From assembly GCA_016776635.1 (NCBI GenBank), contig JADHSZ010000001.1, positions 35,064 to 99,063 on the forward strand: a stretch of DNA of 64,000 nt. Direction: 5' to 3'. A program made the translations under genes and the position numbers. The stretch comes from Alphaproteobacteria bacterium (GTDB taxonomy: Bacteria > Pseudomonadota > Alphaproteobacteria > UBA11136). Shown here piece by piece: positions 7,898 to 30,882 of the stretch (the first letter of the stretch is position 1; every line of letters begins with the position of its first letter). The notes beneath the pieces were generated by a model. That model did no database searches. It was not told the origin of the DNA and was given only the letters and a program-made list of their open reading frames with translations.

Positions 7898-8326
7898 GCG
7901 GAAAACGACCCCACTAAATGTATTTAATGCGTTAGCTTATACCATATCTTGTATGGAAAGGGAGGAAGAGACTGAGCCTTTTCTGCTACCAGTTCAATAT
8001 GGCAAGAATGGGGCGTCTCTGGGGGATGTGGGCAGAATATGGACGGGATGCGGTGACTCCGTCCTGCCCTAAAATGGAAACATGGGATGAAAAAAGCGGC
8101 GTTGTCCTGGTGCGTCCCGGCTCTGCTATGAGGGGTGCCTTAATTTCTCCAAAATTCGCGCCTAGCTTGACCGTCATGCCGAACGTTCGGACGCGCTCGG
8201 CAGTGAGTCGTGTGACGTCACCCTTGCTGGACACGGGCCTTTTGAACATCATTCTTCATGAAGATTATTCTTTATGAAAACCATTCCGGCACTCTCTTGC
8301 GCGGGGCGGAATCGGAGGAGCGCATT

Positions 8327-9418
8327 ATGACGGGATCGGGAACACATCCCATTTCCCCTGACACTGTTCGGCCCTTGCGGCGGCGGGCGTGGGTATTCTT
8401 TCCCGGCCTTCTCGCCCTTGCCGTTTCCCTTATCCTGTCCGGTCTTCCGGTACAGGCCCAGGATAACGGTCTGCGGCCGCTTGTGGAGCGTCTCGGACGC
8501 TTGGAACGGGACATCAACCTCCTGCAGCGCCAGGTCTATACCGAGGGCGCCAAGGGGGTTCCTGGCAAAGTCCTTAAGCAGGCCGCGCCCCCAGCCACCG
8601 GCAATCCAACAGGCGTTGCCGGTGCCGGTGGCACGCCGTCCAATCTGGCGGTGCGGGTGGAGACCCGGTTTACCGAACTCGAGGATGAACTGCGCAAGGT
8701 GACGGGTCAGTTCGAGGAACTGACTTTCAAGATCAACCAGGTGCAGACCCGCCTCGACAAGCTGGTGGGCGATATTGATTTCCGCCTCACCACTCTGGAA
8801 GGGGCAACGCCACAGGCCTATGGCGGCACACCCGGAGCCGAAGGCGGCGGGGTTGCGGGGCCGGACGGAATCATCGCCGGACGCTCCGGAGAGGAAGGGG
8901 TTCTTGGCATCCTCAAGGTTCCCGTGGACAAGGACGGCAACCCCATAGAGGGGGCGGTGGCAAGCGAGAATGTTCAGGATCAACAACAGGACCGGCAGGC
9001 CGAGCCGCAGCAGGCGCTGTTGCCCGAAGGCACGCCGGAGGAGCAGTACAAATACGCCCTCGGCCTGTTGCGCCAGGCCGATTATCCCATGGCGGAAAAA
9101 TCATTCCGCGCCTTCATCGCGGCCAATGGTGAGCATGAGTTGGTGGCCAATGCCCAGTACTGGCTCGGCGAAACCTTCTATGTGCGTAAGGACTACACCA
9201 ATGCCGCGGTCATCTTCGCCGAAGGCTACGAAAAGTTCGCCGACAGCCCCAAGGCTCCGGACAATCTGTTGAAGCTGGGCCTGTCCCTGGCCAACATCGA
9301 CGAGCAACAACAGGCCTGTAAGGCCTTTTTCGAGTTGGAGCGGCGTTTCATCAATGCGCCCTCGGTTATCATGAACCGGGCCTTAAAGGAGCGCAAAGCA
9401 ATCGGTTGCGCCGAGTGA
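8327..9418 (+). CDS. cpoB: Tol-Pal system protein CpoB/YbgF (coiled coil + TPR)
   Basis: Signal peptide, then a coiled-coil region (LERDINLLQRQVY). The C-terminal TPR block (YWLGETFYVRKDYTNAAVIFAEGYEKFADSPKAPDNLLKLGLSL) is typical of YbgF. RBS ggaggag precedes the ATG at 8327. It is followed by tilS-ftsH, as in alphaproteobacteria. Confidence 0.8.
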   Translation: MTGSGTHPISPDTVRPLRRRAWVFFPGLLALAVSLILSGLPVQAQDNGLRPLVERLGRLERDINLLQRQVYTEGAKGVPGKVLKQAAPPATGNPTGVAGAGGTPSNLAVRVETRFTELEDELRKVTGQFEELTFKINQVQTRLDKLVGDIDFRLTTLEGATPQAYGGTPGAEGGGVAGPDGIIAGRSGEEGVLGILKVPVDKDGNPIEGAVASENVQDQQQDRQAEPQQALLPEGTPEEQYKYALGLLRQADYPMAEKSFRAFIAANGEHELVANAQYWLGETFYVRKDYTNAAVIFAEGYEKFADSPKAPDNLLKLGLSLANIDEQQQACKAFFELERRFINAPSVIMNRALKERKAIGCAE

Positions 9419-10818
9419 CATCGCCCGGCCATCCGCCCTCCGCCGTTGTCCCACCCCTTAAGGGTAAGCCCCTCAAGGCCAGAGAATTTTCCGCCCTGAT
9501 GAAGGCCCTCGGGCCGTTCGAGCCCGACCCATGCGTGGCTGTGGCCGTTTCCGGAGGCTGTGACAGCATGGCCCTGGCCCTGTTGGCCCATGACTGGGTA
9601 CAAGGACTGGGCGGCCGTTCCCTGGCCTTGACCGTGGATCACCGGCTGAGGCGGGAGTCCGGGGTCGAGGCCCGGCAGGCGGGAGGATGGCTGAAGGCGC
9701 GGGGGCTGACCCATCATATTCTTCCCTGGACCGGCGACAAACCAAAGCGGGGTATCCAGGCGGCGGCGCGCGAGGCGCGCTACGGGTTGCTTTTTGACTG
9801 GTGCCGCGGCCACGGCATTCTTCATCTTTTGCTGGCCCATCATCAGGAGGACCAGGCCGAGACATTTTTGATGCGGCTCGGCCGTGGCAGCGGCATTGAC
9901 GGTCTGGCGGGCATGGCGCCCTTGTCCGAAGTTCCCGCCCTGCGCCTGCTGCGCCCCCTGCTCGACGTACCCAAGGCGCGACTCGCCGCCACCTTGCGGT
10001 CCCGTGGTCAGGAATGGGCGGAGGATCCTTCCAACCGCGATCTTGCCTATGCCCGGGTGCGGATGCGCGCCCTGATTCCGGACCTTGCCCGTGAGGGACT
10101 CGGCGCGTCGCGGCTGGCCGCCACGGCGGGACTGATGGCGCGGGCGCGCCAGGCATTGGGAGAAGAGGTGGCGGAACTGTTGTCGCGGGCGGTGGAGATT
10201 TATCCTCAGGGCTATGTGCGGCTGGACCGGGCGGCGCTGGCGGCGGCGGAGACGGAAATCTCCCTGCGCGCTCTCTCAAGGATTCTCACCTGTGTGGGCG
10301 GAAGGGCCTATCCCCCGCGTTCGGAACGTCTGGCGAGACTCCATGGGGAACTCTTCTCGAAAAAAGAAAGCCGGGCCCGCACCCTTCACGGCTGCCGCCT
10401 GATTCCCGAAAAGACAAAAAAAGGCGGGGGCACCACCAAGACCATGTTTGTCTGCCGCGAGCCCGCTGCCGCCGGGGAGCGTCTGGCGTTGCGAGCGGGG
10501 ATGCGGGAGGTCTGGGACGGACGTTTCCTGTTCGAAACCGACAGGGCCGGGGAAACGGGCCGGGTCCGGACCGGCAAGACGAAACGGACGCCGGTTCTCG
10601 CCCGGCTCGGCCGCGAGGGCTGGTCCCGGATCGTGGGGCGGGCACCCGAATTGCGTGATTCAACGATTCCCTGGCCGGTGCGCCTTTCTCTGCCGGCGCT
10701 GTGGTGCGGAAAAAAAGTGGGGGCGGTGCCGCATCTGGATTATGTTGACGAAACCGTTATCCAGCCCGGATTCGGGCTCCGTCTGAAGGGCTTCTGTCCG
10801 GCCAATTCCCTTGCATAA
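9406..10818 (+). CDS. tilS: tRNA(Ile)-lysidine synthetase TilS
   Basis: PP-loop motif AVSGGCDSMAL and conserved cpoB-tilS-ftsH synteny. The true start may be the ATG at 9499. Confidence 0.85.
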   Translation: MRRVTSPGHPPSAVVPPLKGKPLKAREFSALMKALGPFEPDPCVAVAVSGGCDSMALALLAHDWVQGLGGRSLALTVDHRLRRESGVEARQAGGWLKARGLTHHILPWTGDKPKRGIQAAAREARYGLLFDWCRGHGILHLLLAHHQEDQAETFLMRLGRGSGIDGLAGMAPLSEVPALRLLRPLLDVPKARLAATLRSRGQEWAEDPSNRDLAYARVRMRALIPDLAREGLGASRLAATAGLMARARQALGEEVAELLSRAVEIYPQGYVRLDRAALAAAETEISLRALSRILTCVGGRAYPPRSERLARLHGELFSKKESRARTLHGCRLIPEKTKKGGGTTKTMFVCREPAAAGERLALRAGMREVWDGRFLFETDRAGETGRVRTGKTKRTPVLARLGREGWSRIVGRAPELRDSTIPWPVRLSLPALWCGKKVGAVPHLDYVDETVIQPGFGLRLKGFCPANSLA

Positions 10819-22438: not shown

Positions 22439-23740
<1,302 letters not shown>

Positions 23741-23935
23741 TCGTCTCGCGGTCTGCCCTGGTATATGGGGGCATGATGGGATGCTGCCACGTTCAGTGAA
23801 TGGGCTCATTTTCTTTCCACTTTGGCGGTAACGTCATAAAATGCACCGTGGCGGAACATATATAACATTCGGGTAGAGACAACTTGGGTAAAGCTCTGGC
23901 ATTCTCTGGTCTGGTAAGAGGAGACAACTGCTCCC

Positions 23936-25960
23936 ATGTCGGCTGAAGAACTTATTGCTGGTGAGTCGGGTCAGGGCGGCATTGAAGTCGAGGGTCGCTT
24001 CATCCTCTTCCCCAACAAGCCGCTGCCGGAATTGGATTCGCCTTCTTCCAGGGCCTATCAGGTTCAGGATCTTCAGGATTCGGACGGAAAACGTCCCCTG
24101 TTTGTGCTTGTTTCCGATCATCCTTTCCCCCCGCGCCTGGATTCCCTCCTCGCCATGCGCAATATGGAGCATCCCAATCTGTTGAGGCCCATATTCTGGC
24201 AGGTGGTTTTTTGGCCGCCGCTGGAGCGAGGGGCTTTCACCGCGATTTTCGAGAAGCCTCAGGGCGGGAAGCTGATGGACTCCCTGACTTCGGTCATCAA
24301 GCCGGTTCACGAGGAAGGTCTGGTGGAGACCTATATCACTCCGCTTGTGGGGGTGCTGAAGGAATACAACGCCCGTGGCTTATCACACCGTTGTATTCGT
24401 CCCGACAATCTGTTTTTTGCCGACAAGGAACGTAATCATGTGCTTCTCGGCGAAGGGTTCATGGTGCCGCCGGGATATGTCCAGAACGTCATGTTCGAGA
24501 CCATCGAAAATGGCATGTGTCATCCCTTGGGGAGGAGCACGGGCGCTGTCGATGAGGATTTTTACGCCCTTGGCGTGACGTTGCTTTTTCTGGTTTCCGG
24601 TCGTGCTCCGGCGGTGGGGACGGATGATGATATACTGATAATCAATAAGATCGAACAAAGCAGCTATGCGGCTTTGGCGCGAAAAGAGCGGGTTCCAAAA
24701 TCGGTTAAGGAATTCCTGCGCGGCGTCATTTCAGATGATCCCGTAGACAGCTGGTCTCTGGAAGATATTGCCTTTTGGCTCGATGGCCGCCGCGTCAGTC
24801 CCCAGCAGCCCGTTATGCCACCGCGCGCCAACCGCCCCATCAAGATCGCCGGAAAAGATTATTTTACGGGACGTTCTCTGGCCCACGGTTTGTTCCGGAA
24901 CTGGGACGTAGCGCTTAAAGTTATCCAGGAAACAGACTTGGAAACCTGGGCTATGCGAAGCGTCGGTGACGACGTTCTGGCCACGGCCATATCCACTGTC
25001 ATGGCCAGGGCAGCTCTGGCGGAAGGGGGTGAGACGTCGGAAATGGCGATCTCTTGGCTATGCATGGTTATGGACCCTAAAGGACCGGTGCGGTATCGGA
25101 CTTTCGCAGCCATGATTGATGGTTTTGGCCGTTACATGATGCAGGCACACAAGGATGAGGCCGAGGCAAAACTTTTCACCGATATTGTTTTCAGCGAGCT
25201 GCCCGTCATGTGGATTCATAACCGGTATGGCGATGATACGGAGGGGGCGCCTTTCCTCAGGGGGATCGAGCGGCTGCGTTACCTCCTTAAACAGACCACC
25301 TACGGATTTGGGTTCGAACGCTGTCTTTACGAGCTTAATCCCTCCATGCCCTGTGGCAGCCCGCTGATAGCCGATTTTTATGTAGAGGAGCCCAATGATC
25401 TTCTGCCGGCCCTGGAAAAGGTTCCGCCCGAGCTCCAGGAAAAAACACTGCCCATGGACCGCCATATTGCGGCTTTTATAGCCGGTCGTTTCAAACATGA
25501 TACCGATTCCATGCTCAAGGATCTTTCCAACAGAGGAGATCCCAACATGGTGGTGCTGGCTACATTGAGGATGTTTGCCGTGATGCAGTGGAAAATGGGG
25601 CCGAACAAGCTGCCGGCCATATCACAATGGATCGGCCGTTTTCTGGGCCCCATCATGAACAACTACCATAATCTGAAGACACGGGAGATGATCCAGGAGT
25701 TTCTGCCCCAGATGATTAAAAAGGGAAGTCTGGTGGAAATTCTCAATCTTCTGGACGACCCGGCAAGGCGACAGGGGGATGCTAATGGCTATTGGCATGC
25801 CGTGGATGAATACGCGGCGGCGAAAGTAGAGGTTGAGATGCTGACGATGGAAATGGAAACCCAAGGGCCACGGACCATCCTTGCCGGTCACCGCATCTCG
25901 GCCATGGTTGCTTTTTTTATCGCGGTTCTGATTATCGCCACCATGGCGGTAACTTTATAA
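23936..25960 (+). CDS. Membrane-anchored protein-kinase-like protein, predicted pseudokinase (Hanks-type fold with degenerate catalytic motifs; C-terminal TM helix)
   Basis: Subdomain VIb-like GLSHRCIRPDNLFF (HRD becomes HRC). The DFG position reads LGEGF (Asp lost). Subdomain IX-like DFYALGVTLLFLVSG is present and there is no Gly-rich loop. The C-terminal hydrophobic segment is ISAMVAFFIAVLIIATMAV. Good RBS aagaggag. Confidence 0.6.
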   Translation: MSAEELIAGESGQGGIEVEGRFILFPNKPLPELDSPSSRAYQVQDLQDSDGKRPLFVLVSDHPFPPRLDSLLAMRNMEHPNLLRPIFWQVVFWPPLERGAFTAIFEKPQGGKLMDSLTSVIKPVHEEGLVETYITPLVGVLKEYNARGLSHRCIRPDNLFFADKERNHVLLGEGFMVPPGYVQNVMFETIENGMCHPLGRSTGAVDEDFYALGVTLLFLVSGRAPAVGTDDDILIINKIEQSSYAALARKERVPKSVKEFLRGVISDDPVDSWSLEDIAFWLDGRRVSPQQPVMPPRANRPIKIAGKDYFTGRSLAHGLFRNWDVALKVIQETDLETWAMRSVGDDVLATAISTVMARAALAEGGETSEMAISWLCMVMDPKGPVRYRTFAAMIDGFGRYMMQAHKDEAEAKLFTDIVFSELPVMWIHNRYGDDTEGAPFLRGIERLRYLLKQTTYGFGFERCLYELNPSMPCGSPLIADFYVEEPNDLLPALEKVPPELQEKTLPMDRHIAAFIAGRFKHDTDSMLKDLSNRGDPNMVVLATLRMFAVMQWKMGPNKLPAISQWIGRFLGPIMNNYHNLKTREMIQEFLPQMIKKGSLVEILNLLDDPARRQGDANGYWHAVDEYAAAKVEVEMLTMEMETQGPRTILAGHRISAMVAFFIAVLIIATMAVTL

Positions 25961-25975
25961 ACCCGGAGGATGTGA

Positions 25976-26446
25976 ATGGCGGATCCGGCAGGAGACCAGC
26001 CCGAAGCGAAGTCCAATATAAAGCTGGTGGGTTTTTTCGTGGTTATTGCGGCGGCGGTGGTTGCCCTGCCTACAATCATATTGCTTGGCCTGGGCCTGAT
26101 CCCCACCTTCGTTGCTTTTAAAATTGATCCCTACCGCCGGCTCAGATACGCCACACGTTGTGTCGGTTCCATGAACCTGACCGCGGCCATGCCGTACGTG
26201 CTGCAACTATGGGGGGGGCGCAACGATGTGGATGCGGCTTTTGCCATTCTGGGTGATCCCATGAGCTGGATGGTAATGTTCGGTGGTGCAGCGGTGGGTT
26301 GGGGGTTTTATCTCGGCCTGCCTTCCGTTGTGCAGATTTTCCTCACCATGCAGGCGGAGCAGCGGGTTATCTTCCTTACGGAACGTCAGCAGAAACTGGT
26401 GGAGGAATGGGGGGAGGTAATCACAACCCAGCAAAGGCCCACCTGA
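25976..26446 (+). CDS. Small multi-pass membrane protein (hypothetical), 16 bp downstream of the kinase-like gene
   Basis: 156 aa with three or four hydrophobic segments and an RBS ggagg. It is likely co-transcribed with 23936..25960. Confidence 0.5.
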   Translation: MADPAGDQPEAKSNIKLVGFFVVIAAAVVALPTIILLGLGLIPTFVAFKIDPYRRLRYATRCVGSMNLTAAMPYVLQLWGGRNDVDAAFAILGDPMSWMVMFGGAAVGWGFYLGLPSVVQIFLTMQAEQRVIFLTERQQKLVEEWGEVITTQQRPT

Positions 26447-26452
26447 ACCGCT

Positions 26453-27337
26453 CTAGTTTGCCAGGCGTTGTTCCATGGCGTGGTTGCGTACGGATTTCTG
26501 CAGCTTTTCAAAGGCACGGGCCTCTACCTGGCGAACCCGTTCCCGGGAAATTCCATAGCGTTGGCTGAGTTCCTCAAGGGTGCGGGGCTTGTCGCTGAGC
26601 CGCCGCTCGGTAAGGATATGGCGCTCTCTTTCGTTGAGGCTGCCCATACCCTTTTGCAGAAGCTGGCGCCGGTTATCCAGTTCTTCCATGGCGGCCAGAG
26701 AAGTTTCCTGGGACTCACGGTCGTCGGCAAGCCATTCCAGCCACTCGCCTTCGCTGTCGGCTTTCAGCGGGGTGTTGAGGGAACGGTCGGGAAAGGTCAT
26801 GCGCATGTTCATGCTGATGACGTCGCGCTCCGGCACGTTCAGACTCTCGGCAATTTTGGTTACGTTCTCGGGGTATAAATCGCCTTCTTCGAAGGCCTTC
26901 AGCTTCCCTTTCAGGGATCGCAGGTTAAAGAAGAGCTTTTTCTGAGCCGCCGTGGTTCCGATCTTTACCAGCGACCAGGAATGCAGAATATATTCCTGGA
27001 TGGCGGCTCTGATCCACCACATGGCATAGGTGGAAAGCCTGAACCCACGGTCGGGATCGAAGCGTTTTACCGCCTGCATCATGCCCACATTTCCTTCGGA
27101 GATAAGCTCGCTCAGCGGCAGGCCATAGCCGCGATAACCCATGGCAATCTTGGCCACGAGCCTGAGATGGCTGTTGACCAGTTGATGGACGGCATCGTCA
27201 TCCTGGTTTTTCTGCCAGCGCTTGGCCAGATCGAACTCTTCATCCCGCTCAAGCATGGGGTATTTACGAATTTCCCGGAGAAACCGGGAGAGACCCGCCT
27301 CATCACCCACTTGCGGAAACTGTGCTGCCGATGCCAT
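26453..27337 (-). CDS. rpoH: RNA polymerase sigma-32 factor RpoH
   Basis: The RpoH box QRKLFFNLR and sigma-70 regions 2 and 4 (ISRERVRQVEARAFEKL) are present. Start at the internal ATG (MASAAQFPQ..). The rluD-rpoH arrangement is typical of alphaproteobacteria. Confidence 0.9.
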   Translation of the reverse strand: MASAAQFPQVGDEAGLSRFLREIRKYPMLERDEEFDLAKRWQKNQDDDAVHQLVNSHLRLVAKIAMGYRGYGLPLSELISEGNVGMMQAVKRFDPDRGFRLSTYAMWWIRAAIQEYILHSWSLVKIGTTAAQKKLFFNLRSLKGKLKAFEEGDLYPENVTKIAESLNVPERDVISMNMRMTFPDRSLNTPLKADSEGEWLEWLADDRESQETSLAAMEELDNRRQLLQKGMGSLNERERHILTERRLSDKPRTLEELSQRYGISRERVRQVEARAFEKLQKSVRNHAMEQRLAN

Positions 27338-27456
27338 TGCAAAACTCCTGAATTTCTGGTTCCCGAGATCATGGTTTCCGATTTCAGAGAAAGGAAACAA
27401 CGACCCCCACTGGGAACAGATAATAACCAAGTGTTTCGCTCAGGTATAGTGGTTTA

Positions 27457-28469: not shown

Positions 28470-28811
28470 ATGCAGGCGCTCAAGGCCCTCGTTATCGGTA
28501 TGGGAGTTTTAATTCTGGTGGCCATGGCGGTGCTTGCCGTCACCATATACAAACGGGCCACGACACCAGGCGATGAAACGGCGGAGGCGGAGGCCGGTCT
28601 GCGGGCTGGGGCTGCATCGGGTATTTCTTCCGACACTTTTGGTTCCGTGGATTTACCCATTCCCGAGGGCGCTACTGTGGAGGCGATGGAGGCCGAAGAC
28701 GACCGTCTCATACTGAGACTTCGTCTTAACGATGGCAGCACCAGCATCATGGTGGTGGATATTGCCAGCGGAGCTCTGATCGGTAATTTTCTTCTTCAGC
28801 CCAGGCCGTAA
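28470..28811 (+). CDS. Small N-terminally anchored hypothetical protein
   Basis: 113 aa with a single N-terminal TM (ALVIGMGVLILVAMAVLAVTIY) and an acidic central region. No recognised domain. Confidence 0.4.
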   Translation: MQALKALVIGMGVLILVAMAVLAVTIYKRATTPGDETAEAEAGLRAGAASGISSDTFGSVDLPIPEGATVEAMEAEDDRLILRLRLNDGSTSIMVVDIASGALIGNFLLQPRP

Positions 28812-28842: not shown

Positions 28843-30882
28843 TCATCCTGCCCGAGGTGATTCTCTTCCACCCACGAAAAACTGGGGATCGTGATAAAAA
28901 TCCTTGTAAGCCGAGACCATGCGCTGGAGTGAAAATTCCTCGGTGATTCTTTGCCGACTCCGGCGGCCCAGATCGTGCCGTAGTGCCGGGTCTCGCTGTA
29001 GCTTTTTGATGGCCTCGGCCAAGGCGTTGGAATTCTTTTGCCTAACGATAATCCCGCAATCACCGACGATCCGGCTTGAATCACCCACATTGGTGGCGAT
29101 CACGGGAAGTTCACAGGACATGGCCTCGGCGATGGCGTTGGAAAACCCCTCGCCATAGGCCGAGGCGGAGATGAATACGTCCATGGCATGGAGGATGCGA
29201 AGCGCATCCTGGCGCTCTCCCAGGCAAATCAATCCGGGCTTCTTGGGAAGTTTTTTGGTTCCGCGGCCGGCAACGATACAAACAACCCCATCAAGTTTTT
29301 CCAGTGCGGCAAGAAGGTTGGGGTAATCCTTCATGGGGTCATTGCGGGCCAGGGCGCCGATGACAAACGCATCCCTGTCGATACCGAGCTCGGCGCGGGC
29401 TTCATGGCGCAGGGACAGGGTGGCCTGGTACAGGGAAACGTTGAGGCCATTGTCGATGACGGTAAACAGTTTCGGTTTGTAGCCGATACGGAGATGCCAG
29501 CTTCTTCCTTCCATGGAGTTGGCGACGATGCCGTCGGGAAGAAAAGACAGCCAGGCACATACCCTGATGACCACTCTCAGGGTAAGACCGTACTGGGCGG
29601 TGTCCATGTTCGAGCAGCGGATTCCCCAGTAAAGGCGGGTTTGGCGCCGCCGGCCGGATACCATGAGGGCGATCAGGCTGTAAAGATCGGCATGGTACAT
29701 CCAGCTCTGGATGATGTCGGGTTTCTCGACGCGAATCAGGTCCACGAGACGGAAAAGCCCACGCAGACCAGGCCTGCCGCGCACAAGACCCACCTCTTTC
29801 ACCTGGACCCCGGCCTTGACCAGATTGTCATGACGCGCGCCTCCGGGCAGTAGGCTCACCAGAAGTGGAGACTCGCCGGCGTGGTGGTTGGCGATGGCGA
29901 GATCGGTGAGCATTTTCTCCGCGCCGCCGGTATCGAGACCGGTGATTACATGCATGATCCTCGGCCGCTCTGACAGGGACGTTGATACCGCCTTAGCGGA
30001 GGGGATCAGCGCCATTCTGCGAATGGCATTGTTATAGAAGGCGAGATTCCTGAAGGGCCAGGCCACCACGGCGCGACTCAGGAACCACATGGCCCGGAAA
30101 TATTTTCTTTCATAGAAGGCGGATGCCGACCCCTCCACCAACAGGCTGGAAAGAAATTTCAGGGAATCGACTATGCTGTTTTGCATAATCCAGGCCCGAT
30201 GTTTCCTGAAGAGCCGTCTGGTACTGTCCTGAACCATGTCCAGCGGCGGCCGCGGGGAGAGGTGAATCCGCACCAGGGGTTCGGGGACGACACTAACCTG
30301 ACCGGTTTTCAGGTATCTCAACAGCCAGTCCCAGTCCTCCAGCCGTTCCAGCGTCTCGTCGAAAAGGCCGTATTCGTCGAAGACACGGCGTGCGGCGAAG
30401 AGCGTGGAGCCGGGGCTGAGATCACAGCCCATGAGCAGACGTCTGTAGGTGGCGCAGGGTTGCGGGATGCGGGATTCCTGCCTTCCCGTTTCATCCCAGG
30501 TCAGGATATAGCCCGAGCACAGAAGGCGCGCGTCACTTTTTCCCGAACGCAAGAGGGTGATCTGGTGGTCGAGCTTCCCCGGCAGCCATTCATCATCGGA
30601 ATCCAGAAGCGCGATATACTCTCCTTTAGCGGCCCTAATCCCCGTATTGCGGGCCGCTCCGGCGCCCTGGCGGGTTTCATGGTGCAACAGGGTGATGGGC
30701 ATATCCCGGAAGTGGGAGAGCCCGCCTTTGAGATCGTCGTTGGAGCCGTCATCGACGACGATGATTTCAAGGTTGGGATAGGCTTGAACACGCACGCTCT
30801 CCAGCGCCCGGCCAATCTCGTGAGCCCTGTTGTAGACCGGGATAATGACACTTATCAGGGGGTTCTGTTGGGCTTCAGGCAC
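28843..30882 (-). CDS. Bifunctional glycosyltransferase (N-terminal GT2 domain fused to C-terminal GT4 domain)
   Basis: N-terminus: ISVIIPVYNRAHEIGRALESV..IIVVDDGSND (GT-A DxD). C-terminus: ..IMHVITGLDTGGAEKM.. and the GT4 EX7E region GEGFSNAIAEAMSCELPVIATNVGD. Confidence 0.8.
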   Translation of the reverse strand: MPEAQQNPLISVIIPVYNRAHEIGRALESVRVQAYPNLEIIVVDDGSNDDLKGGLSHFRDMPITLLHHETRQGAGAARNTGIRAAKGEYIALLDSDDEWLPGKLDHQITLLRSGKSDARLLCSGYILTWDETGRQESRIPQPCATYRRLLMGCDLSPGSTLFAARRVFDEYGLFDETLERLEDWDWLLRYLKTGQVSVVPEPLVRIHLSPRPPLDMVQDSTRRLFRKHRAWIMQNSIVDSLKFLSSLLVEGSASAFYERKYFRAMWFLSRAVVAWPFRNLAFYNNAIRRMALIPSAKAVSTSLSERPRIMHVITGLDTGGAEKMLTDLAIANHHAGESPLLVSLLPGGARHDNLVKAGVQVKEVGLVRGRPGLRGLFRLVDLIRVEKPDIIQSWMYHADLYSLIALMVSGRRRQTRLYWGIRCSNMDTAQYGLTLRVVIRVCAWLSFLPDGIVANSMEGRSWHLRIGYKPKLFTVIDNGLNVSLYQATLSLRHEARAELGIDRDAFVIGALARNDPMKDYPNLLAALEKLDGVVCIVAGRGTKKLPKKPGLICLGERQDALRILHAMDVFISASAYGEGFSNAIAEAMSCELPVIATNVGDSSRIVGDCGIIVRQKNSNALAEAIKKLQRDPALRHDLGRRSRQRITEEFSLQRMVSAYKDFYHDPQFFVGGRESPRAG

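Follow-up and report, generated by a model that had tools for sequence, protein, structure and literature searches.

Our analyses of a 64,000-nucleotide stretch of an alphaproteobacterial contig (JADHSZ010000001.1, positions 35,064 to 99,063; hereafter the window) centered on two adjacent genes located between purA and rpoH. The first encodes a 674-aa protein that, by the standard sequence definition, is a pseudokinase, and the second encodes a 156-aa polytopic membrane protein. A preliminary description of the locus, made from the letters of the window, had placed open reading frames (ORFs) of these two lengths between purA and rpoH; both were confirmed at the coordinates listed here, with the single correction that the gap between them, given earlier as 16 bp, is a spacer of 15 nt (25961 to 25975). 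Coordinates are positions in the window, and residue numbers throughout are those of the 674-aa protein of the window unless stated otherwise. The two genes and their parts are as follows.

23936 to 25960, plus strand: pseudokinase gene, a 674-aa ORF with an ATG start, stop codon included.
23978 to 24802, plus strand: predicted pseudokinase domain (residues ~15 to 289), delimited with an AlphaFold2 model, a Foldseek search of the PDB, the phmmer/hhalign register of the C-lobe, and column counts in 78 orthologues.
24803 to 25771, plus strand: orphan all-α domain (residues 290 to 612), with two small β-hairpins and invariant motifs at residues 457 to 475 and 506 to 514.
25772 to 25885, plus strand: amphipathic stalk helix (residues ~613 to 650), continuous with the membrane helix.
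25886 to 25957, plus strand: C-terminal membrane anchor ISAMVAFFIAVLIIATMAVTL (residues ~651 to 674), with which the protein ends.
25976 to 26446, plus strand: small partner gene, a 156-aa ORF with an ATG start, encoding the polytopic membrane protein.

The translation of the pseudokinase gene contains the motifs HPNLL (residues 79 to 83), GLSHRCIRPDNLFF (residues 148 to 161), LGEGF (residues 171 to 175), and DFYALGVTLLFLVSG (residues 208 to 222). The landmarks of the pseudokinase domain are HRC in place of HRD (residues 151 to 153), the catalytic-loop remnant IRPDN (residues 154 to 158), G172-E173 at the DFG position, an APE-like FETIE (residues 187 to 191), the α-F residue Asp208, and DDPVDSW (residues 267 to 273). 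The kinase core noted in the preliminary description is weak at the sequence level. Specifically, the Pfam Pkinase model PF00069 matched residues 207 to 277 only, with 23.8 bits against a cut-off of 31.7 and hence below its gathering threshold; the kinase part of the NCBIfam LanL model gave a generic, subthreshold match at 6e-10; and the top sequence match in the PDB was SNRK (8.6e-8, residues 72 to 290), in which HRC stands opposite HRD. The predicted fold nevertheless bore the kinase core out. An AlphaFold2 model of the 674-aa protein, built with 36 family members, had a predicted local distance difference test (pLDDT) score of 89.6 and a predicted template-modeling (pTM) score of 0.84. A Foldseek search of the PDB with this model returned more than 1800 protein kinases, with PknB, WNK1/3, CaMKI/II, and Aurora A in the lead (E ∼1e-8; TM score normalized to the target ∼0.7). 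Because the model is confident and its Foldseek matches are kinases, the predicted structure of residues ∼15 to 289 is a genuine Hanks-type kinase fold.

The catalytic motifs of this fold were checked in a 36-sequence alignment and in 78 species-level orthologues taken from the fetched loci, to which the residue counts given below refer. At the position of the HRD Asp, which had been described as a Cys in the window protein, the orthologues have Ala (55), Ser (17), Asn (3), Gly (2), or Cys (1), and Asp in 0 of 78; His151 is kept in 75 and Arg152 in 77. The position of the β3 (VAIK) Lys is occupied by Ile in 41 orthologues and by Val in 37, and the β3 strand of the family reads L-[YF]-A-L-[IV]-C. 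The glycine-rich loop, rightly described as absent, is replaced family-wide by a conserved proline- and acid-rich segment, PLPELDSP. At least two of the VAIK Lys, HRD Asp, and DFG Asp are missing in each of the 78 + 36 sequences, and the degenerate motifs are shared by all 78 orthologues, indicating a true pseudokinase and not a local error. By the standard sequence definition, therefore, pseudokinase status holds for the whole family and is not strain-specific. In two highly divergent members, one from a Micavibrio metagenome-assembled genome (MAG) and one from locus L090, the HRD position reads HGN and HGR, respectively; the Micavibrio member lacks Asn158, and both outliers keep the rest of the protein.

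The family-invariant landmarks of the C-lobe are E188 (the APE Glu), D208 (the α-F Asp), and R272 of subdomain XI, for which the family consensus is DDxxxRW. Of the positions in the kinase C-lobe, 10.6% are invariant, compared with 9.8% in the orphan domain and 3.1% in the N-lobe, which is where ATP would bind and which is the least constrained folded part of the protein. The window protein itself departs from family residues that are at least 97% invariant at G201S, R272S, and L562I. R272, a Ser in the window protein, is the subdomain-XI Arg of the "ERW" motif that normally pairs with the APE Glu. Since a 92%-identical relative, P0001, also has S201 and S272, these two substitutions are a lineage trait and not an error.

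The DFG Asp had likewise been described as missing, a claim that may not hold. One pairwise alignment, the SNRK match, supports it by putting the invariant G172 on the DFG Asp. The adjacent residue 173 speaks against it, being acidic in all 78 orthologues (Asp in 70 and Glu in 8, E173 in the window protein) and lying directly after the predicted strand 169 to 171, the usual location of the DFG motif. Profile alignments to PknB and to PKA, used as rulers, left the DFG segment unaligned. Besides G172, the residues R67, R155, and N158 are invariant in the 78 orthologues, with R155 corresponding to a Lys-to-Arg exchange in HRDLKPxN. Given that R155, N158, and D/E173 are kept, a phosphate- or metal-binding remnant may survive in this otherwise degraded site.

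The region that follows the kinase fold had been described as a single long domain of about 350 aa with no known function. An unknown region is indeed present, but it is divided into a domain of ∼320 aa (residues 290 to 612) and an amphipathic stalk of ∼40 aa. For the orphan domain, we found no Pfam family and no relative among solved structures. Its two motifs are G-x-G-x-ERCLYELN-x3-C-x-S (residues 457 to 475) and P-x-DRH-x-AAF (residues 506 to 514), and G457, G459, E461, R462, Y465, C473, S475, P506, D508, R509, H510, A513, and F514 are invariant in 78 of 78 orthologues; C463 is conserved in 64. All 13 invariant residues are also kept in the Micavibrio and L090 outliers. The motifs of the family that resist change most strongly lie in the orphan domain. 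The last helix pair of the domain (EFLPQMIKKGSLVEILNLLDDPAR, residues ∼589 to 612, positions 25700 to 25771) resembles a single armadillo (ARM)-repeat consensus. The apparent E value of ∼1e-6 against designed ARM proteins arises because one weak motif (∼7 bits) is summed over their identical repeats.

In the AlphaFold2 model, a single helix (residues 609 to 673) spans the stalk and the anchor, and the family-averaged hydropathy periodicity of the stalk is strongest at 3.5 residues. The single C-terminal transmembrane (TM) helix of the preliminary description was found in all 78 orthologues as a conserved hydrophobic terminal helix. The terminal 19-aa segment has a mean hydropathy of 2.42, and between 0 and 6 residues (median 3) lie beyond the hydrophobic helix. 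No other TM-like segment was detected by hydropathy in the 78 orthologues, and the pseudokinase protein is predicted to be tail-anchored throughout the family, with the remainder in the cytoplasm.

The 156-aa protein encoded downstream had been proposed to be multipass, and hydrophobic segments are indeed present in it and conserved in its orthologues. The layout, derived from 70 orthologues, begins with a K/R-rich N-terminal tail (net charge +5.2) and an uncharged first segment of 31 residues, which carries a pair of LPT-type motifs. A basic loop (net +1.2) leads to a second segment of 21 residues containing CVGGxNFAGxxP..LW, and an acidic loop (net −1.7) to a third segment of 27 residues containing YGAAGxGW..P. 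The protein closes with a basic amphipathic helix ending in the invariant W145-G146 (numbered in the small protein). A topology with both termini in the cytoplasm fits the positive-inside rule best, in which case the first segment would be a hairpin or re-entrant element. Searches of Pfam, NCBIfam, PADLOC, and the PDB, the last also with a profile against PDB sequences, gave no match for the small protein. A single-sequence word-index search recovered 4 relatives and a profile search 63; these 63 are unnamed or "hypothetical," save for one stray label, "pheromone shutdown protein TraB." The small protein of the window is identical to the "hypothetical protein" ISR48_00315 (Alphaproteobacteria bacterium).

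The association of the two genes was analyzed in a synteny sample of 80 fetched loci and a mirror-tree sample of 33 loci. The small gene lies directly 3′ of the pseudokinase gene in 71 of the 80 loci; the gap between them has a median of 5 nt, and at several loci the two genes overlap by 1 or 4 nt. Of the nine loci without the small gene, six are contig ends, and the other three are L008, L014, and L020. purA lies upstream in 68 of the 80 loci, and the wider backbone reads (serA)-hisZ-purA-pseudokinase-small gene-...-rpoH-rluD-DUF6476. However, the pair is found without purA and hisZ at L090 and without rpoH and rluD in Micavibrio. Thus, the invariant unit is the pseudokinase–small gene pair, not its neighborhood. 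Because the pair occurs without each of purA, hisZ, rpoH, and rluD, we take the synteny to be a conserved backbone and not a functional clue, and no functional link of the pair to any of these four genes was found. The same finding removes the ground for the earlier suggestion that a position among housekeeping genes signals a regulatory or envelope role; nothing points to the envelope specifically.

The pairing extends to the evolution of the two proteins. Their mirror-tree distance correlation (r = 0.89) was the highest among all gene pairs, and a partial r of 0.70 (Mantel p = 0.001) remained after housekeeping distances had been regressed out, compared to partial r values of 0.01 to 0.54 for the control comparisons of the pseudokinase with purA, hisZ, or rluD. 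Both proteins evolve ∼3 times faster than purA, a rate typical of interaction modules and not of core enzymes. Taken together, the synteny and the correlated evolution strongly support a link of the obligately paired pseudokinase to the downstream membrane protein.

Two of the loci sampled have unusual surroundings. At L008, a 431-aa tyrosine-recombinase-like ORF (8319 to 9614) occupies the place where the small gene normally sits, which suggests that an island was inserted behind the L008 pseudokinase; no tRNA was found at the recombinase insertion. At L089 (5934 to 11962), the Micavibrio MAG, purA, the pseudokinase gene, and the partner gene form a block behind which a complete tad/flp pilus locus, with TadE, Flp pilin, prepilin peptidase, RcpC, and secretin genes, takes the place of rpoH-rluD.

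The family to which the window pseudokinase belongs is large. A word-index search with the pseudokinase gave 198 matches. When representatives at 50% identity were searched exhaustively, 943 clusters matched at E ≤ 1e-30, almost all of them 660 to 740 aa long and aligned over their full length. In a scan of one genome per species, relatives were present in at least 538 species genomes. With full-length orthologues numbering in the hundreds for each, the two ORFs are not products of chance, and the gene pair is widely conserved in Rhodospirillales-type alphaproteobacteria as a stable chromosomal element. A precomputed PF00069 match is on record for about one-third of the family members listed. 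Public names include "hypothetical protein," "protein kinase family protein," and "serine/threonine-protein kinase," the last of which is misleading, and we found no paper on the family or its accessions. Eight contigs that carry the pseudokinase locus, mostly with purA and the small gene, are labeled as Comamonadaceae, Bacteroidota, Actinomycetota, Marinimicrobia, or Patescibacteria MAGs (L007, L013, L016, L045, L046, L053, L067, and L076). Their purA sequences are 72 to 76% identical to that of the window, and these are probably misbinned alphaproteobacterial contigs.

The genes flanking the pair in the window and the candidate expression signals are as follows.

22448 to 23740, plus strand: purA, the upstream flank; a hisZ-like gene also lies upstream.
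23814 to 23842, plus strand: candidate σ70-like promoter TTTCCA-17-TAAAAT in the 195-nt purA–pseudokinase spacer, from a consensus scan (9/12 matches; weak evidence).
23916 to 23924, plus strand: putative Shine–Dalgarno sequence AAGAGGAGA, 11 nt before the pseudokinase ATG, read from the sequence.
25965 to 25969, plus strand: putative Shine–Dalgarno sequence GGAGG, lying between the pseudokinase stop (4 nt upstream) and the small-gene ATG (6 nt downstream), read from the sequence.
26453 to 27430, minus strand: rpoH, the downstream flank, as a mechanical ORF of 325 aa with its stop at 26453; rluD lies beyond on the same strand.

On the source contig, rpoH is called at 294 aa and is thus shorter than the mechanical ORF. 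A promoter and terminator scan of the region returned no more sites than expected by chance, and no terminator-like site between the pseudokinase and small genes was present in it. The small gene and rpoH converge with 6 nt between their stops (26446 to 26453), where no terminator-like hairpin was detected. The GC content is 0.52 to 0.56 for the pair, 0.57 to 0.61 for purA, and 0.50 to 0.57 for rpoH, with no obvious break at the pair. Farther downstream, a 113-aa ORF after rluD (28470 to 28811, plus strand) encodes an uncharacterized small protein of the same backbone that is conserved in 27 of the 80 related loci; its equivalent at L084 matches Pfam DUF6476 (PF20082). The next gene (28843 to 30882, minus strand) encodes a 679-aa protein that fuses GT2-type and GT4-type glycosyltransferase domains. 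Past it, the source contig carries genes for a B12-binding radical SAM enzyme, an AMP-dependent ligase, a UDP-GlcNAc 2-epimerase, a GT2 protein, and a DegT aminotransferase, and the genes from 28843 onward look like a surface-polysaccharide cluster.

Seven bacterial pseudokinase families have been defined by a 2025 atlas (O'Boyle et al., bioRxiv 10.1101/2025.01.12.632604) and a review (PMC12599244). Compared with the published descriptions of the seven, the present family fits none of them. The atlas was seeded on PF00069 homologues (bioRxiv 10.1101/2025.01.12.632604), and this seeding, with only about a third of the listed members having a PF00069 match, may explain why the family is not among the seven. 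Among the seven, GLW is the only proteobacterial, TM-bearing, and fully degraded family; a GLW motif replaces HRD, and its β3 strand is poly-Leu (LLLL/W) (PMC12599244). It is reported to lack the DFG Asp in 100% of its members (PMC12599244; bioRxiv 10.1101/2025.01.12.632604). In contrast, the present family has His, Arg, and one of A/S/N/G/C at residues 151 to 153, with no GLW motif; its β3 strand is not poly-Leu; and it keeps an invariant acidic residue at the DFG Asp or one position off. The His-Arg retention and the β3 sequence rule out GLW membership of the window pseudokinase.

The best functional analogy is EssB/YukC of Firmicute type VII secretion, a Hanks-derived pseudokinase with a single TM helix and all catalytic motifs degraded, which acts as a noncatalytic dimeric scaffold recruiting membrane partners (PMC12599244). 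As in EssB/YukC, the pseudokinase domain of the window protein would be cytoplasmic and tethered by one TM helix. However, EssB has a folded extracellular domain past this helix, whereas the window family ends 0 to 6 residues after it, and EssB, from a different phylum, has neither a 320-aa cytoplasmic orphan domain nor a small polytopic partner. No type VII secretion genes (FtsK/SpoIIIE ATPase, WXG100) were found among the Pfam-annotated neighbors in the neighborhoods examined. EssB/YukC membership was ruled out by topology and by the purA/hisZ/rpoH/rluD context.

A second membrane-associated bacterial pseudokinase, the MviN/MurJ-fused protein of Mycobacterium tuberculosis (ActPs3 family), binds no ATP and provides a platform for regulatory docking (PMC12599244). 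The window protein differs from ActPs3 in being a separate tail-anchored polypeptide from another lineage, with an unrelated accessory domain and an activation segment (G172 to E188) that is short but present. The closest structural matches to residues 15 to 289 are canonical Hanks-type receptor kinases such as PknB (TM ∼0.7), with which the family shares the APE Glu, the α-F Asp, and, in its consensus, the subdomain-XI DDxxxRW. PknB has an intact glycine-rich loop, K40, D138, and D156, catalytic residues that the window protein lacks (DFG register as for G172-D/E173), and its TM helix is followed by extracellular PASTA sensor domains, whereas the window protein has no extracytoplasmic part. 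A relationship to UbiB/ABC1 (COQ8) was also rejected, as there was no match to Pfam ABC1 (PF03109) at E ≤ 1 and a C-terminal TM feature alone is in common.

We favor the reading that the pseudokinase is a noncatalytic, membrane-tethered scaffold or switch that descends from a Hanks-type kinase and is physically complexed with its 156-aa partner, to which we assign a probability of roughly 55%. A Hanks-type Ser/Thr kinase ancestor would have lost phosphotransfer chemistry family-wide, with the β3 Lys, the HRD Asp, and the glycine-rich loop. The soluble mass of the protein, comprising the pseudokinase domain, the 320-aa orphan domain, and the heptad-patterned stalk, would be cytoplasmic and held at the inner membrane by the tail-anchor helix. 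Pseudokinase and partner are presumed to be made from one transcript, possibly with translational coupling, and would form a stable membrane complex through their membrane helices and/or through the stalk and the C-terminal amphipathic helix of the partner; the pseudokinase probably dimerizes or packs through its stalk. We infer that the complex has no enzymatic activity and that, as a scaffold or conformational switch, it would recruit or regulate other cytoplasmic or membrane proteins. Clients or a ligand may be bound at the C-lobe of the pseudokinase and at the patch of invariant residues in the orphan domain.

Several observations weigh against this reading. R155, N158, and the acidic residue 173 are kept, and in active kinases the equivalent residues make contact with the phosphates of ATP or with Mg. 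WNK, CASK, SelO, and SidJ were all once called pseudokinases and proved active in unorthodox ways. The cluster E461/R462/Y465/C473/S475/D508/R509/H510 could be a catalytic or cofactor site and not an interface. Finally, similar saturation of two rapidly evolving proteins relative to slow controls can inflate the residual mirror-tree correlation.

The first of these observations could be taken to mean that the protein is an unconventional but active enzyme, which would bind nucleotide through R67, R155, N158, and D/E173 on the kinase fold and carry out phosphorylation or a different transfer, for example AMPylation or glutamylation, in the manner of WNK, CASK, SelO, or SidJ. We regard this as unlikely. 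The invariance of R67, R155, N158, and G172 would fit such an enzyme, as would an Asp or Glu at residue 173 in every orthologue, right behind strand 169 to 171 where the DFG Asp normally sits, and the DYD and DLHK families, which lack the β3 Lys, have nevertheless been modeled with ATP (PMC12599244). The surrounding site is less accommodating. No conserved basic residue lies near the position of the β3 Lys (position 61 is Arg or Lys in 63 of 78 orthologues and Asp in the window protein); the glycine-loop equivalent PLPELDSP is rigid and acidic, and so unfavorable to phosphates; and no substitute catalytic base is found at the HRD Asp, which is Ala or Ser in 72 of 78. Moreover, Asn158 is lost in the Micavibrio member, and the N-lobe is the part of the fold under least constraint.

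Alternatively, the orphan domain could be the functional center, either as an enzyme or as a sensor of a small molecule, metal, or cofactor at E461-R462, Y465, C473, S475, and D508-R509-H510, with the pseudokinase as a regulatory or dimerization appendage and the small protein supplying or receiving the ligand. This, too, seems doubtful to us, although it overlaps with the favored reading and is partly compatible with it. All 78 orthologues and both outliers keep the cluster unchanged, while the catalytic-loop residues drift; its combination of Cys, His, and Asp/Glu is typical of metal sites or nucleophile-based catalysis, and a domain with no structural relative leaves room for a novel activity. 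On the other hand, the domain is all-α and has an ARM-like motif and helices that look like repeats, features of a class made up mostly of binding modules; E-R and D-R pairs at the ends of helices are just as characteristic of structural salt bridges; and the second Cys, C463, is kept in only 64 of 78.

That the gene is a decayed or mis-sequenced active kinase, or a mobile or antiphage defense element, is hardly credible, since orthologues and genomic context together all but refute it: the same type of substitution is found in all orthologues and the ORF is intact and full length everywhere, the gene has a fixed chromosomal place beside purA in 68 of the 80 loci with no GC break, and the weak matches that point to defense, PD-T4-6 at 28 bits (PADLOC) and MAD6 and PglW at 17 and 9.6 bits (NCBIfam; cut-offs 460 and 990 bits), span the generic kinase core only, with no defense match for the partner. 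Readings of the protein as a component of defense (PD-T4-6, MADS MAD6, BREX PglW) or lanthipeptide (LanL) systems were rejected on score and context.

Bacterial pseudokinases are a recognized but almost unexplored class. Among the seven families that the 2025 sources describe, roles are known for just EssB/YukC and the MviN domain (PMC12599244; bioRxiv 10.1101/2025.01.12.632604). To these the locus adds a large family from another lineage, with more than 900 clusters (50% identity) and a presence in at least 538 species. More speculatively, and with some reserve, we suggest that it could be an eighth bacterial pseudokinase family: an undescribed two-protein membrane module, ancestral to Rhodospirillales-type alphaproteobacteria and reaching Micavibrio, that might sense or gate a membrane or metabolic signal handled by the small partner, with the orphan domain as a new ligand-binding or catalytic fold. 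The family overturns no existing concept. It does offer a testable architecture, in which a dead kinase and an orphan domain are combined with a tail anchor and with an obligate partner that is a small membrane protein, and Magnetospirillum and Thalassospira, two of the genera in which it occurs, have genetically tractable strains. Were the complex with the partner and the process it serves to be identified, the pair would become a second worked example of noncatalytic reuse of the kinase fold at a bacterial membrane, and the same identification would assign a function to a 320-aa domain that has neither a family nor a structural relative.

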